Shown piece after piece: positions 1 through 44,100 of a DNA stretch of 64,000 nt; the first letter of the stretch is position 1, and every line of letters begins with the position of its first letter. Source of the stretch: a virus (taxonomy: Duplodnaviria; Caudoviricetes); IMG/VR virus record IMGVR_UViG_3300028888_000061, positions 74,362 through 138,361 of that record. One strand, written 5' to 3'. Below the pieces are notes generated by a model. It ran no database searches. It was not told where the DNA came from and saw nothing but the letters and a program-made list of their open reading frames with translations. The translations under genes and the position numbers were made by a program.

Positions 1-176
1 CCAGAACCATGCGTAACCATAGCATCCGTAAAGCTGTTGTCCGCAAGACCACGCAAAGCACGCAGTAATGTGGACTTACCGGAAGAGCTTGCACCAAGAA
101 TAAGATTGACTCCTGGAACAAAAGACAAGCTCGCCTCGCGAATAATACCTACGTTTGTCAATTCAACTTTAAACAC
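1..176 (-). CDS. SMC/SbcC/gp46-like recombination ATPase, N-terminal part (runs off window; absent from ORF track)
   Basis: Manual translation from GTG at 176: MFKVELTNVGIIREASLSFVPGVNLILGASSSGKSTLLRAL; Walker A in typical SMC-family N-terminal context; GGAGAG upstream. Confidence 0.8.
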   Translation of the reverse strand, partial: MFKVELTNVGIIREASLSFVPGVNLILGASSSGKSTLLRALRGLADNSFTDAMVTHGS

Positions 177-285
177 TGCACTCTCCAAAAACAAATACCA
201 CGCAAGGTGCGTAAAACTTAATACGGGTACGTTTTACCACAAAGTCGATATAGAAAAGAGTACAGCACCACGACAAGTGAGACAC

Positions 286-322
286 AAAAAAAAAGCGTTC
301 TGTGATTAGCAGAACGCTTTTT
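286..322 (-). terminator. intrinsic terminator ending the candidate ncRNA
   Basis: AAAAAGCGTTCTG...CAGAACGCTTTTT hairpin, with the longer U-tract on the minus strand. Confidence 0.8.
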
Positions 323-910
323 CATGCAATTCGACACGGAGGGCACAAAGCCCTTACAATCAATGATGATACAAGTAACATCATAAACCTGAGACTTTAA
401 GGGTAGGAGTATTCCCCACACGAAACGTGCGCTCTGGCGATTCTGCCGTAAGTCACAAGGTGTGACCATCCAAGTAGGTTACATGGCTTTCCAACGTACA
501 GCCCTTTACGGGAATTGTGTGCAACGAATCTCCCACATCTAGCCATCCACTCACCACCGGTTTTGTACCCCGGTGATGAACTGTGCGAGCAAGCCCGTAG
601 GCCCGTTTTCCCTCGTCACAGTCAAGCGTCAAAACGAAGGTGCACGCCACGATCAATCCGTGTTAGTCATCTCACCCAATAAACACTTCTTCAGAAAACC
701 TACCACAACCGTGATAACCTTTCTGAAGAAGTGTGTAGAGGAAACGTAAGTCAAGTTAAGACAGCCGCGAAGCCAATCTTTGCTTTTTTCTTGCTCGGAA
801 ACAACCCACAAACTCAACACATATAAGATCCTGTACGTTGGAAAGCCATGTACCAAACCCTTCTTCACCTGTCAAATAACTGCGGCAGGTCTAATGTGCC
901 GCAATCTTAC
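286..910 (-). ncRNA. candidate large structured non-coding RNA (~600 nt)
   Basis: No credible ORF; many hairpins whose imperfect pairs are G-U only on the minus strand; cUACGg tetraloop; 22-bp and 15-bp perfect inverted repeats; bounded by promoter-like and terminator signals. Confidence 0.6.
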
Positions 911-914
911 TGTT

Positions 915-943
915 TAGATAACACAGAAATAAAAACCGTGCAA
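915..943 (-). promoter_or_regulatory. sigma70-like promoter candidate for the ncRNA
   Basis: Minus strand TTGCAC-N17-TATCTA; also overlaps an ATCTAAA motif. Confidence 0.4.
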
Positions 944-966
944 CGTATTTGCTCAACGAAATAAAC

Positions 967-1362
967 TCAGCAACAACAGTCAGAACAAATCCGGCTCCAA
1001 TGAAGAGGGTCAATCTCTGCGTAACCTTCCCAATCAACAAGGAAATGTTTGCCTTCCTTGTAAAAAATGTCACCTAGCACATTGAAGAACCCTGGATGGA
1101 TAACCACAACGCCGGTATAGTCCAAGAGGAATGAAAACAGCACCGTATCATTCCTGTTCATAGGCAGTTCAGAAATGACAAGGAAATGTCCGTCAATCAC
1201 ATCATAAACCACACGTGACATCACACAATGAAGCGACAACCACTCACGCATGATGCAAGCATACTGAAAACAGTTGCCTGTAAGCCATGTGGATTCGTCA
1301 GGGAAACGTCTGGAACGGTAACTAAAATATTCAGATTCTAGTTCAGAGAGGCATTGAATCAT
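967..1362 (-). CDS. hypothetical protein, possible Cys-His-Asp (papain/transglutaminase-like) fold
   Basis: GNCFQYA...DGHF...DYTG pattern; overlaps upstream ORF in operon fashion. Confidence 0.5.
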   Translation of the reverse strand: MIQCLSELESEYFSYRSRRFPDESTWLTGNCFQYACIMREWLSLHCVMSRVVYDVIDGHFLVISELPMNRNDTVLFSFLLDYTGVVVIHPGFFNVLGDIFYKEGKHFLVDWEGYAEIDPLHWSRICSDCCC

Positions 1363-1685
1363 TGCAGTAACTCACGAAGATTCTTATGACGCAGAAATTT
1401 GTACGCCAAATCCTGTGCATAATGCCATAACAATATGTCCTGCGTTGGATAAGGAAGCTGAACAATCCAGTGAAATTCGTCAGCGTCTTCGTCTGTAAAC
1501 GGACAAGGAACACCGTCAAAACATGCTTTCATCCATGCATCGAAACGCATGGAAATGTTTGCGAAATTAGAGTGGTAAACAATCCCACTACGTTTATCCG
1601 TAATGGTCAATAAAGGTGCATAAAACGAATCTACCGACAGAACAAAATTCGTCATTTCAAACGGAAACACGAAATTCATATACAA
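1359..1685 (-). CDS. hypothetical protein
   Basis: 108-aa ORF in a tightly packed minus-strand run. Confidence 0.6.
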   Translation of the reverse strand: MYMNFVFPFEMTNFVLSVDSFYAPLLTITDKRSGIVYHSNFANISMRFDAWMKACFDGVPCPFTDEDADEFHWIVQLPYPTQDILLWHYAQDLAYKFLRHKNLRELLQ

Positions 1686-1694
1686 CCCGAATCG

Positions 1695-2165
1695 CTAAAA
1701 AACTTCATCCCAACCCAAGCCGTCATTTGAGTAAAGCGTCAGCCCGTAATCGTCAAACACATCGCCATCAATTTCCTTGCGATACGTTATCATGTACTGA
1801 TGCACATCAGACTGTAAATCCTGCATCAGATACTTCATACAGGACAGTGCATCATCGTAAGTGACCAACTCTCCGTGGTCTCCGAGAATGCTTGCGAACA
1901 CAAGCTCACGAGTTGCACAAGGGAACGAAGCTACGATACGAAAAAATCCTTTTAACGCGGAAACATCTTGCTCAGAATGAAAAACGCGGCAAGCAATGTC
2001 ATCGAATGTTCCTGCATCATAGCATATACCGTGAAGCAATTCATCATCAGTTTCTCCACCAGTACACCAGCCACAATGGCATTCGTCTTTACGGCCACAA
2101 CGCTCAGTGAAAAAAGCGATTGCTTTTCTATTCAGCCTTAAAACCTCTTCTTCATACCATGTCAT
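1695..2165 (-). CDS. hypothetical protein
   Basis: GGAGG SD ahead of ATG (MTWYEEE); Cys cluster CHCGWC. Confidence 0.65.
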   Translation of the reverse strand: MTWYEEEVLRLNRKAIAFFTERCGRKDECHCGWCTGGETDDELLHGICYDAGTFDDIACRVFHSEQDVSALKGFFRIVASFPCATRELVFASILGDHGELVTYDDALSCMKYLMQDLQSDVHQYMITYRKEIDGDVFDDYGLTLYSNDGLGWDEVF

Positions 2166-4921: not shown

Positions 4922-4999
4922 CGGTACCTCCTAAACGAGAATTTTGAAGCATCGTCAAGATACCATAGACACACATGAGTGAAACAAACAGCACCATGA

Positions 5000-12232: not shown

Positions 12233-12311
12233 ACGTCACTTTAAGATTTTTGCAAACCTTCAAAAATACGTTCATCTCCTTGATTTTATTGACATTTTAA
12301 ATTTATTTCAC

Positions 12312-12450
12312 TTTGGCATGTTTTGTGCAATATATTATATAATCAAAGTTAATACAATCTAATCTTTCTCTCTTTCTCCTCACTTTCTATCGAAAGTGAT
12401 TATATTGGATTACTTTTGATTATATAATATATTGCACATAGTATGCCAAA
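12312..12450. other. AT-rich long imperfect palindrome, probable replication origin core
   Basis: ~53-bp arms (TGTGCAATATATTATATAATCAAA / TTTGATTATATAATATATTGCACA perfect core) at the point where gene direction and apparent strand composition switch. Confidence 0.65.
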
Positions 12451-12714
12451 ATTTAAAAAATTTTTAAAAGTGTTGAAATTGTTGAAGTTCAGACAGTTTT
12501 CAGAAAATTTTGAAAGCTGAAAAAGCTGAAGAAAAAGTGCGAATTTTGGTTGAGGACAAATTTTATGGAAGTTAATACGGCTGGCATGATTTTTGCTAGA
12601 AGACTTGTACGTAAGTACTCATCCACCTGTGAACTATGATTTTGGTTAAAGACCGATTCAGGCATATTCCTGTTTTGCTTTACTTTGAATGGAATTTGCT
12701 GTATCAGAAAATTT

Positions 12715-12810
12715 GTGTGGCTAGGGTAGCTACCGAAAAGACGTAAAGCCTAACGTCCGCCACACTCTCTTTTTAGAGATGACTCAGGCACGTATTTGAG
12801 GCTGAATACC
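12715..12810 (+). promoter_or_regulatory. structured leader RNA (related to tnpB leader)
   Basis: GTGTGGC/GCCACAC outer stem, GAAAAG, inner stem with AAGCCT loop, then AGGCACGTATTTGAGGCTGAATACC. Confidence 0.6.
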
Positions 12811-12826
12811 GTTAAAATTTCACGCC

Positions 12827-41172: not shown

Positions 41173-44100
41173 ATGGCATTTGACTTATGTGTAATACCTG
41201 TATCAACAGTTCCGTACCTGTCTGCATTACAGACCCGTCAGTTTTCGATGACGGAGATAACAGCTCATCTCGTTTCTGAAAAACTGACTCGTGAGCAGTG
41301 TCGTTCGATGACGCCTGAGACGTTTTCTGCTTCTTATGGTTCTTCAGCTTATGCACTGCATGTTCGTAGTTCGGTTTCGTCCGAGATAAACCTTGCCCTC
41401 ACATCGTCTGCTAATGACAACGCTCCGACAGGGTATTCCGTCGTCATTCAGGGTTATCTTGTTTCTCAGGAGCAGCAGGTGGTTCTTGGCGTGTGCGTCT
41501 CTGATGAACCCATTGTGGCTGACATATCGTTGCGTTTGTTCGTGAATATCGAGGAAACGAATAATGTTTTTCGTTTGAGTGCTGACTTTGACGGTATGGT
41601 CACCCAGGGTCTTTTGGACGATATTCTTGAGACGTATGTCACGACTGATACAGACCAAGACATAACAGGCGAAAAAACATTTACAGAAAGCAGTCTGAAA
41701 ATCGGTTCTGACACGATTAAGCATTATTCGTTCAAGCATGGTCAGGAATTTGTCATCGGCACACAGACTGCTTCAACAAATGCATGGACAGGTGTGTCTG
41801 TACAGGATGCATTGTATGACGGCATGTGCATCAATTTCTATCTTCCGTATGCAGGAACTACCGATGCTGCTACGTTGACACTCACGATGGCTAACGGAAG
41901 CACAACGGCTGCAATCCCTATTAAGTATCGTGGTAACAATAACGTCACTACAACGTTCCCCGTCGGTTCAATCATTCAGCTTACATACTGTGAGAACAAA
42001 ACGATAGGTAGTAATACCATCACAGGATGGTTTGCCGATTCAAACTACGTGGCATCTATTACGGTTTCCTATGAACGCAATCGTATCGGCGGTCGTGTGG
42101 TTGCCGGGAGTACAGGTCTTTATGCTTTTCAGCCGAGTCTTCTGGTTGACCGTGACGGTAATAAATACGTATCCATTACGACATCAAGCACAGCACATGC
42201 TTCCGGGACTCCAAAGACGTGTACTACATTGGGATTTTACCCAGAAAGTATCCTCACCAGTGATACATCTTATGCTAGTGGGAGTATTGCGGTTGCCAAT
42301 AAGATTTGGCGTACATACACTTTAACCGTGAATCAGTGTTTCGGCACAGCCTCATTGACAGCTTCCAGACCTGTGTATCTTGTCTGCACGTTTAACCGTA
42401 ATGATGGAAAGTTCTACCTCGACACAGCACAGTGGTGGTCACAGACGATTCCTCAACAGGAAAATGGAAAGTTGTACATTTTCCTCGGCATTACGGCAAC
42501 CGCAACAGCGTTCACATTGGACTCCATTCATCCAATTCTCTGCTATAAAGACGGTCGTGTTCAGGAAGTTACGTATGCTTCATTGGTCACAAATGACCGA
42601 ATTGATGCAATAGAGGAGTCGATACCTCAGAATCTTTCAGACCTTGAGGATGACCTCGGTGTTCTTACTGAGCATCAGTCGTTGGCTGCATACCCGACAA
42701 GCGCATCGTACAATTCTTCTACGAAAAAGATTACGTTCAAGAATGCGAGCAATACAGCACTTCCAAACATGGAAATCGACGCCACGGATTTCATTAAGGA
42801 CGGCATGGTAAGTGATGTAGCAATCCAGAATGACAATCTTGTTGTGTCGTTCAATACGGATGCAGGAAAAGAAGATATCTCCATACCTCTGTCCAGTATC
42901 TTTGACCCCAGTAATTATTACACGAAAACACAGACCGATACACAGATAAGTAATGCGATTGACGCTCTCGGTGAGGCCGCAGAATATGACGTTGACCCGT
43001 TCCCAATCACGGATGCATCATCCGGAAATCTCGTCACGACTATTTCCATGACTCAGTGGGTTCGCAGTCAGAATTATGCAAAGATAACAGACCTTCCTAC
43101 AGTCAATAACGCAGCTCTTACCATCCAGAGAAATGGTGCTACGATTGCGACCTTTACAGCTAATGCTTCAAGCGGTGTTACTGCTGATATTTCTGTACCG
43201 GAGAACACGAGTGACCTTGAGAACGATTCTGGATTTGTTTCTGAAAGTGATTTGGGGGATGCGGCTTTCCGAAGTGTCGATACAAGTATCGTAAACGCAT
43301 CATCAGGAAATCTTCCAACAGTGGAAGCCGTGACAGGGTGGGTTTCGTCGCAGCTTGATGGTTATGCACAGTCTGATGATATTCCTACCGTAGGAAATGC
43401 CACCATTACGATACAGAAACGCTCTGGTACGAGTGCAGGTAACTTCACAACAAATGCCACAGCAAACAAGACCATCAATTTGAGTCTCGGAGCTGCCGCA
43501 GACAAAGCCGTAGACACGTCCATCTCCAACACGTCTTCGACAAATCTCCCAACGACTTCCGCTGTTGCAACTTGGGTGAACTCTCAGACTGGCAATTTCG
43601 TAACTCTTAATACTCAGCAGACAATCACCGCACGGAAGACTTTAAACTCAGGTGATTATAATGCGTATCTTAATGCCTCTAATATTACTGTTGAATATTC
43701 GCCATCCTCTGGGCATACAGCAACGGCTTCGTTGCTTCCGACAGGTCTTTCTGTTGATGGTGTTCATTTTCTGAACAGCTACGGTCGTGCCGGTGATAAC
43801 TTCCTGGTTGCGTCTGTTGAAGGTACGCATGGATTCTCGGAACTTACAGTTAATGGAGGTCTTGGCTTCACGTTCTGCAATAAGGGAATAAACGATGAGG
43901 ATTACAGCTATCCTCTTCGGATAAACGCAAACGATACGACCTTTGACGAAAATCAGTCTCTTTATTTGGCACGTGATACGAATACGTACCTTCGTGTCTC
44001 TGACACGATTACTGATTTCGAGGTCTCACTTGATGACGATAATTCGCCTACACAGTTATGGTTTAAACCTGGTCATGTTTACTATGGTGTTGTTATAACA

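Follow-up and report, generated by a model that had tools for sequence, protein, structure and literature searches.

The DNA analysed here, a window of 64,000 nucleotides (nt), is the right-hand part of a 138-kb IMG/VR record (IMGVR_UViG_3300028888_000061) with an estimated completeness of 72%. On its minus strand, about 770 nt without a conserved open reading frame (ORF) separate the stop codon of a gene for a 131-amino-acid (aa) protein (position 967) from the start of an ATPase gene (position 194). This gap, which a preliminary description had read from the letters alone as a non-coding RNA of about 600 nt, very probably holds a real structured RNA gene of a new family, running from position 908 to position 286 of the minus strand and present as a single copy in the genome. 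The earlier observation is partly confirmed, being largely right, and its interpretation is supported: the gap is real, and the ORFs of 49-83 aa within it are shadows, conserved neither in position nor in frame among relatives.

Homologues were gathered through the neighbouring ATPase gene. In six further phage lineages, the split SbcC-like ATPase gene is immediately preceded by 0.8-1.1 kb free of genes, and each of these stretches carries four nearly invariant blocks in the same order. The ATPases of these lineages are 95% (L006, L007 and L017, from IMG/VR and JGI), 83% (L018, from Logan), 57% (L019, from an ENA gut metagenome), 53% (L020, from Logan), 50% (L026, from Logan) and 49% (L008 and L015, from IMG/VR) identical to that of the window, and the RNAs of L026 and L008 are 86% identical to each other. 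A DNA profile of the core detects each homologue at E <= 1e-75. In L008, L019 and L020, the RNA core is overall only 54-59% identical to that of the window, a level that matches the ATPase gene; the core has thus diverged as far as its neighbour, and its conservation is not simply a matter of recent common descent. The minus-strand RNA with its own promoter and terminator, as claimed beforehand, recurs in the six other lineages as collinear, covarying RNAs. Their length is 612-634 nt in five lineages and reaches about 786 nt in L019 and about 836 nt in L020, because of insertions in the 3' domain of these two.

Five core helices were placed on an alignment of seven sequences (A6) and their pairs were counted, with 500 shuffles and partner-sliding controls for comparison. 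Standard pairs make up 97.2% of the 288 core cells, and changes on both sides are seen in 16 of the 42 core pairs (31 cells), twelve of these compensatory pairs lying in H2, three in H8 and one in H7. None of the 500 shuffles reached the observed values of pairing and covariation, and sliding the 3' partners by 1-3 columns lowered pairing to 33-43%. Covariation among homologues, whose absence would have counted against the preliminary description, favours a folded RNA. For H2, H7, H8 and a further hairpin at 354-340, the predicted fold is shown by covariation.

The helix that organises the molecule had been missed in the preliminary description. It is H2, which pairs 831-852 with 480-501 as a perfect 22-nt inverted repeat enclosing 329 nt, as located with a repeat finder. 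Compensatory changes occur in 12 of its 22 pairs, 98.6% of its cells pair, and it extends over at least 18 base pairs (bp) in all lineages; its inner 11 bp keep not only their pairing but also their sequence and run straight into an invariant junction. The closing helix suggested earlier, ACACGGA/UCCGUGU (657-663 with 334-340), does not hold, its 3' partner not being complementary in L008, L019 and L020. The ACACGG segment belongs instead to a local hairpin, H7 (662-648), in which CACGG (662-658) pairs with UCGUG (652-648) around an invariant loop G(A/U)UUGAU, with a compensatory A-U to G-C change in L019.

H2, H3, H7, H8 and H9 together make up what is, as predicted from the alignment, a five-way junction closed by H2. 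H3 shuts off domain I, the strand UGACUAA connects H3 to H7, and H8 shuts off domain II; the H9 stretch, which abuts H2, is part of a 31-nt nearly invariant block, CACAAUUCCYGUAAAGGGCUGUAC..UGGAA. About 75 nucleotides are invariant, and they are concentrated in the strands of the junction and in two loops, G(A/U)UUGAU and GUAAA. The family is recognised by a junction closed by H2 together with the blocks UGAGAUG..UA.CACGG.UUGAUCGUGG and CACAAUUCCYGUAAAGGGCUGUAC, and these anchors were found, in order, in the window, L006/L007/L017, L018, L008/L015, L026, L019 and L020.

The transcribed strand is given by the pairs themselves. The preliminary description had argued that the imperfect pairs are G-U on the minus strand and would be A-C on the plus strand, and the count bears this out: covariation-supported helices hold 25 G-U cells on the minus-strand RNA against 4 A-C cells, which fixes the minus strand and rules out a DNA-level inverted repeat. 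The minus strand from 943 to 286 folds with a minimum free energy (MFE) of -247 kcal/mol (z = -7.8 against dinucleotide shuffles), in line with the energy comparison proposed beforehand. With z = -9.1 the plus strand folds no less well, and folding energy therefore shows only that this DNA is rich in inverted repeats, not which strand is read.

The promoter claimed for the RNA is supported by -35 and extended -10 boxes conserved at a fixed spacing. In the window, L006, L018, L008 and L026, a spacer of exactly 17 nt and freely varying sequence separates TTGC(A/G)N from TATCTA, and L020 carries the variant TTGCAA-N17-TATATC; this fixed spacing over a variable spacer is that of a predicted sigma-70-type promoter with an extended -10 signature. 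The predicted start of the RNA, at about 908 +/- 2, falls just ahead of hairpin H1. At the 3' end, the terminator that had been proposed was found at 323-289, and every lineage has one there with a stem of different sequence. Beyond it, in the window and in relatives, comes a box of the RTGGTGCTG type, of which the window has 10 copies against 1.0 expected; it is probably a phage-specific promoter element, judging by over-representation and position. With a promoter and terminator of its own on the one side and the RTGGTGCTG box of the ATPase gene on the other, the RNA and the ATPase gene look like separate units served by different promoter types. The other nine RTGGTGCTG sites in the window are at 4989, 9149, 10148, 15569, 32503, 32966, 52119, 56642 and 59051.

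Outside the core, hairpins are constant in place and length but not in sequence, as is the case for H6, for the two stems of domain II (IIa and IIb), for the 354-340 hairpin and for the terminator. These variable hairpins were assessed from single-sequence folds, because the MAFFT column alignment shifts their register (L008 is one column out at H6). The 15-bp perfect stem noticed earlier corresponds to H6, the long hairpin 734-683 of domain I, with 16 + 7 bp in the window; a perfect hairpin of 16-22 bp stands at this position in all seven sequences, with unrelated sequences across lineage groups. Domain I otherwise contains small hairpins and a conserved A-rich strand. Domain II holds two stems that had also been proposed, and both are kept in relatives with compensatory changes: ACUGUG(A)CGAG/CUCGCACAGU (622-612 with 589-580), which encloses a UACG-capped hairpin (605-590), and AUCACCGG/CCGGUGGU (579-551). 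The positions of the UACG-capped stem (622-580) and of the hairpin 579-551 are constant, and their sequences differ by lineage group.

At the 5' end, H1 is missing from L020, where the predicted start lies about 4 nt before H2, so that H1 and the purine-rich strand after it appear to be accessory and H1 falls outside the universal core. In the looser 3' domain, ACUCCU (410-405) is invariant, and relatives retain the AGGGC/GCCCU stem of the preliminary description within UAAGGGC-loop-GCCCUC (354-340), a hairpin in which a G-C pair has become U-A, a compensatory change, in L008 and L026. The stem GUCACA/UGUGAC (467-451) stands in close relatives and fails in L008 and L026, which pair differently there. 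Insertions of about 70 nt or more enlarge this domain in L019 and L020. A role of ACUCCU as an anti-Shine-Dalgarno-like loop acting in trans was considered and rejected, extended targets not being enriched in the genome. The coordinates of all features are collected in Table 1.

Table 1. Features of the RNA locus and its two neighbouring genes, in window coordinates, listed in the direction of transcription.
Feature	Position	Strand	Basis or remark
Upstream neighbour: 131-aa protein, papain/transglutaminase-like fold (model-based)	967..1362	-	Directly upstream of the RNA in all lineages with upstream flank fetched
-35-like box TTGCAC	938..943	-	Conserved spacing in relatives; predicted
Extended -10 box TGnTATCTA	915..923	-	Invariant TATCTAAAC after TG-N in five lineages
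RNA, ~623 nt, predicted start to end of terminator U-run	286..908	-	Promoter and terminator prediction, relatives
H1, 5' hairpin (GAUUGCGGCA/UGCCGCAGUU)	878..906	-	Kept with different sequences in L018, L008, L026 and L019
Purine-rich single strand, motif YUUGAAA-NN-UGAAG	853..877	-	Conserved in six lineages
H2 5' strand, 22-bp long-range closing helix	831..852	-	Pairs with 480-501
H3 5' strand UCUUA, closes domain I with UGAGA at 670-674	824..828	-	Invariant in all seven sequences
H6, long hairpin of domain I, 16 + 7 bp	683..734	-	Single-sequence folds
Invariant block UGAGAUG..UA.CACGG.UUGAUCGUGG: H3 3' strand, junction strand, H7	648..674	-	Nearly invariant, seven sequences
Domain II, closed by H8 (GUGCA 645-641 with UGCAC 523-519)	519..645	-	Three compensatory pairs in H8
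Junction strand ACAAUU and H9 (CCC-GUAAA-GGG, 512-502), abutting H2	502..518	-	Nearly invariant block
H2 3' strand	480..501	-	Pairs with 831-852
3' domain outside H2, several hairpins	324..479	-	Looser; less conserved apart from ACUCCU and the 354-340 hairpin
Intrinsic terminator, 14-bp stem then U-run (site found at 323-289)	286..323	-	Terminator scan
GTGGTGCTG box, promoter-like; assigned to the ATPase gene rather than the RNA	263..271	-	Between RNA terminator and ATPase gene
Downstream neighbour: 438-aa SbcC-like ATPase, N-terminal half, AAA_23 (start of gene)	3..194	-	Domain match

The extent of the family was followed by several routes. Among more distant ATPase relatives (31-45% identity; L023, L024, L028, L029 and L030), the genes are packed tightly, with no gap and no profile match; L021 and L025, which end upstream, were left out of this comparison of family boundaries. 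Scanned as exact patterns through IMG/VR, JGI metagenomes and 185k species genomes, the invariant blocks turned up in the same three lineages and otherwise only once, in L016, a match discarded as a chance occurrence inside a coding region. Nothing similar came from a BLAST search of GenBank phages and plasmids with the region, and a literature search found no paper that describes this RNA. As far as these searches reach, no member occurs outside a single clade of large, uncultivated phages.

A probable distant relative lies in L022, where a gene-free gap of 742 nt (1063-1804, plus strand) occupies the same place, upstream of an ATPase 35% identical to that of the window, and folds with z = -11.3. 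The gap contains CUUUGAAACUUGAAUAA, which agrees with the leader motif at 13 of 17 positions, and presents in the same order as the RNA the leader motif, a hairpin with an AUUGAU loop, a long-range helix and then GUAAGGGC-N6-GCCCUC. The last of these stands about 45 nt before a terminator, with a chance expectation estimated in this analysis at about 1e-5 in 742 nt. Sequence profiles, including an nhmmer profile of the family, fail to detect L022, and a search for loci related to its ATPase found no kin; L022 is therefore treated as a lead and not as a family member, its relatedness being judged on motifs. In this separate phage lineage, the gap probably holds a distantly related RNA, or else an analogous large one.

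The genes that follow the gap belong to recombination and replication: the 438-aa ATPase gene is succeeded by another ATPase piece, by an SbcD-like nuclease gene and by primase-like genes, and the RNA locus thus stands at the head of a recombination and replication module. An SbcCD-like nuclease is encoded here in pieces (L027:7326-10556, genome 71325-74555, minus strand), and relatives have the same layout. The N-terminal ATPase half, of 438 aa, terminates in a zinc-hook-like CPLCG motif; an ORF of 100 aa, an ATPase piece of 219 aa and an SbcD-like phosphoesterase of 302 aa follow in that order.

The 131-aa protein upstream of the RNA matches no Pfam or PHROG family. Its structural model is confident (a predicted local distance difference test score, pLDDT, of 91.7), and matches of middling strength (Z 6-7.6) to arylamine N-acetyltransferases, protein glutaminases and SseI indicate a papain/transglutaminase-like fold for the modelled structure. 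Cys31, His59 and Asp81 are invariant in six homologues. As a partner of the RNA this protein was rejected: its fold gives no hint of RNA binding, Foldseek against the PDB returned nothing significant, and synteny is the sole link between the two.

Two genes upstream of the RNA in L018 (630-1319, plus strand), a 229-aa protein gives a zinc-ribbon match to PF07282 (Cas12f1-like_TNB). Only its first ~55 residues match the 108-aa ORF of the window (1359-1685), and it is too short for a TnpB. The 64-kb window contains no tRNA; the sole tRNA of the 138-kb record, a tRNA-Lys(UUU) at genome positions 41847-41920, lies 33 kb from the RNA and is flanked by gaps of 550-570 nt. The only Rfam match at gathering score in the window is an int-alpA RNA (37.5 bits; 12714-12779, plus strand), which sits in a 551-nt gap (~12276-12826) at the minimum of the genome's cumulative GC skew (~86 kb); this gap may be a strand-switch or origin region.

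These observations are best accommodated by a stand-alone RNA gene. The host sigma-70-type polymerase would probably transcribe the RNA from TTGCA-N17-TGnTATCTA, and transcription would end at the intrinsic terminator. In the fold, H2 closes the predicted five-way junction, from which two variable multi-hairpin domains hang, and a looser 3' domain with the conserved UAAGGGC..GCCCUC hairpin follows this core. The RNA would act in trans as a compact folded particle, made of RNA only or assembled with protein, and would in this resemble ROOL and GOLLD; this mode of action is a plausible suggestion that falls a little short of probable. Action by coding, by base-pairing regulation or as the leader of the next gene is unlikely. 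Taken as a whole, with a unit of ~620 nt, a new family, its own promoter and terminator, a five-way junction and a trans-acting particle, the balance tips slightly in favour of this explanation.

Several points weigh against it. The transcript, both of its ends and its abundance are all predicted, and the promoter hexamers each agree with the consensus at three of six positions, a generic consensus scan having made no call. H3 and H9 never vary and are thus neither supported nor contradicted by covariation, and a systematic screen for more covarying long-range pairs or pseudoknots returned overlaps with known helices or weak candidates only. MFE folding also pairs the 5' leader with either the 3' tail or 404-399; these pairings were rejected, being neither conserved nor better than in shuffles. 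The sample is small, with seven sequences from about four well-separated lineages. As to the particle, the sequence gives no specific sign of multimerisation, inspection by eye showed no palindromic loop that is conserved, and the RNA, unlike ROOL and GOLLD, is not near tRNA genes (the nearest is 33 kb away).

Other explanations were weighed on the same evidence. The RNA might be a precursor that RNase III cuts in H2 and H6, releasing the ~330-nt inner domain or small RNAs as the active species. Duplexes of this length suit bacterial RNase III, H2 being a perfect 22-bp duplex here and at least 18 bp long elsewhere and H6 a perfect one of 16-22 bp, and such processing would be compatible with the stand-alone gene proposed above. 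This reading is unlikely. The inner 11 bp of H2, conserved in sequence and continuous with the invariant junction, suggest that this helix is part of the functional core and not a disposable stem, and the 3' domain outside H2 has conserved elements of its own, ACUCCU and the 354-340 hairpin. The 138-kb record, moreover, yielded no phage gene for RNase III (nor one for a reverse transcriptase or Ro60), though the host enzyme would do. The same invariant junction could instead be the active site of a ribozyme, self-cleaving or otherwise catalytic: ~75 invariant nucleotides in junction strands and loops, with peripheral helices that covary freely, are typical of catalytic or ligand-binding cores, and bacterial RNAs this large and complex are often ribozymes. 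This reading is rather improbable, given that no Rfam ribozyme or intron model matches, that the RNA is not inserted in a gene, and that no candidate substrate or cleavage site is visible.

The constant position between the same two genes would also suit a cis-acting element, either a leader or attenuator of the downstream SbcC-like operon or a 3' untranslated region of the upstream 131-aa gene. No terminator lies between the upstream stop codon and the RNA, and read-through transcripts therefore probably exist; against this stand the RNA's own conserved promoter and, in every lineage, a strong terminator before the ATPase gene, followed by that gene's own RTGGTGCTG-type box. We know of no precedent for a leader of 600-840 nt with a five-way junction, which also counts against a cis-acting role, and the reading is very unlikely. 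That the locus acts as DNA, as an invertible segment, a small transposon with 22-bp inverted repeats or an origin with a priming transcript, is barely credible. It draws on the perfect 22-bp repeat around 329 bp and on the adjoining replication and recombination genes, but the repeat arms covary and contain G-U pairs, which would be mismatches in DNA, in L008, L026, L019 and L020. The inner segment has one orientation in all lineages, the element is a single copy whose arms are found nowhere else in the genome, and no recombinase gene is adjacent. An origin is further opposed by the cumulative GC-skew minimum, ~11 kb away (genome ~86 kb), and a primer transcript by the terminator at its 3' end. 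A negligible chance is left to the reading that one or more of the short ORFs, which occur on both strands, are real genes; their position, strand and frame change from one lineage to the next, the indels have lengths that are not divisible by three, and base pairing, not codon structure, governs the substitutions. The leader, DNA-element and coding readings are thus close to excluded.

Only very few bacterial or phage RNAs, to our knowledge, combine a length above 500 nt with rich conserved structure, and the classes studied so far have nearly all proved to be ribozymes, ribonucleoprotein machines or, in recent work, nanocages built of RNA only. More tentatively than the stand-alone gene itself, the present RNA could stand beside ROOL and GOLLD as a third class of large phage RNA, independent of both. 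Folded around the invariant five-way junction, it would be a particle complete in itself with its own biochemical job, and host polymerase would make it early, in one clade of gut and rumen jumbo phages. That job, on an equally speculative footing, might be an RNA-only assembly, a ribozyme activity or that of a decoy capturing a host defence or RNA-processing factor. A new class of this kind would offer a ready target for cryo-electron microscopy and a route to the roles of large RNAs during infection; the present RNA brings to such work a unit cleanly bounded by promoter and terminator, a well-defined core that covaries strongly, and natural variants in size (612-836 nt).

No match to a known family had been recognised by eye, and Rfam 15 gives the same answer, with no gathering-score match at the RNA and none at E <= 0.1 on six relatives. 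At E <= 10, window positions 150-1100 return plain hairpins only, the terminator appearing as Thr_leader and H6 as miRNA precursors. In the window and the six relatives, no match was obtained to the models of ROOL (RF03087) and GOLLD (RF02032), nor to those of OLE (RF01071), raiA, HEARO/omega RNA, RNase P, tmRNA, 6S and SRP. A group I or II intron was rejected for want of a model match, both neighbouring genes being whole and aligned end to end in relatives, with a promoter and a terminator bracketing the RNA. The omega RNA of a TnpB or IscB element was also rejected; the neighbouring proteins of 131, 108 and 166 aa have no TnpB domains, and the one zinc-ribbon match (PF07282) is that of the 229-aa protein of L018.

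With OLE and raiA, abundant bacterial RNAs whose function is unknown or partly known, the present RNA shares a large or mid-size, ornate architecture with invariant junctions. These are chromosomal genes of Firmicutes and Actinobacteria, OLE having dedicated proteins, whereas the RNA described here is phage-borne. The pRNA of phi29 resembles the proposed particle in being a phage-encoded structural RNA that acts as a folded multimer and not by base pairing or coding; it differs in its size (~120-174 nt), in its known kissing-loop ring and in its place at a genome end beside packaging genes, neither such loops nor such a context being seen here. The RNase III processing stems of rRNA operons likewise set a long-range helix of ~20 bp around a large structured domain, but in H2 the inner half keeps its sequence and passes into the invariant junction.

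The closest parallels are with the large RNAs of phages. ROOL, first seen in rumen metagenomes, is a multi-domain, stand-alone non-coding RNA of ~580-660 nt from phages and prophages, with unknown function and no known protein partner (PMC12286853). Both ROOL and GOLLD fold into RNA-only multimers, or cages, and the expression of GOLLD rises during phage lysis (PMC12286853). The present RNA is likewise a large, stand-alone, multi-domain phage RNA of a size similar to ROOL, and shares with GOLLD, a large phage and prophage RNA, the possession of its own transcription unit. The likeness to ROOL suggested in the preliminary description holds for size and phage origin and for nothing else: the present RNA has a five-way junction closed by a 22-bp helix, occurs in one small phage clade and has no tRNA nearby. 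ROOL is often found beside tRNA islands, which are its typical and not an obligatory context, and GOLLD, usually longer than 800 nt, lies near tRNA arrays. The RNA described here would thus indicate that large phage RNAs exist also away from the tRNA islands usual for ROOL and GOLLD.

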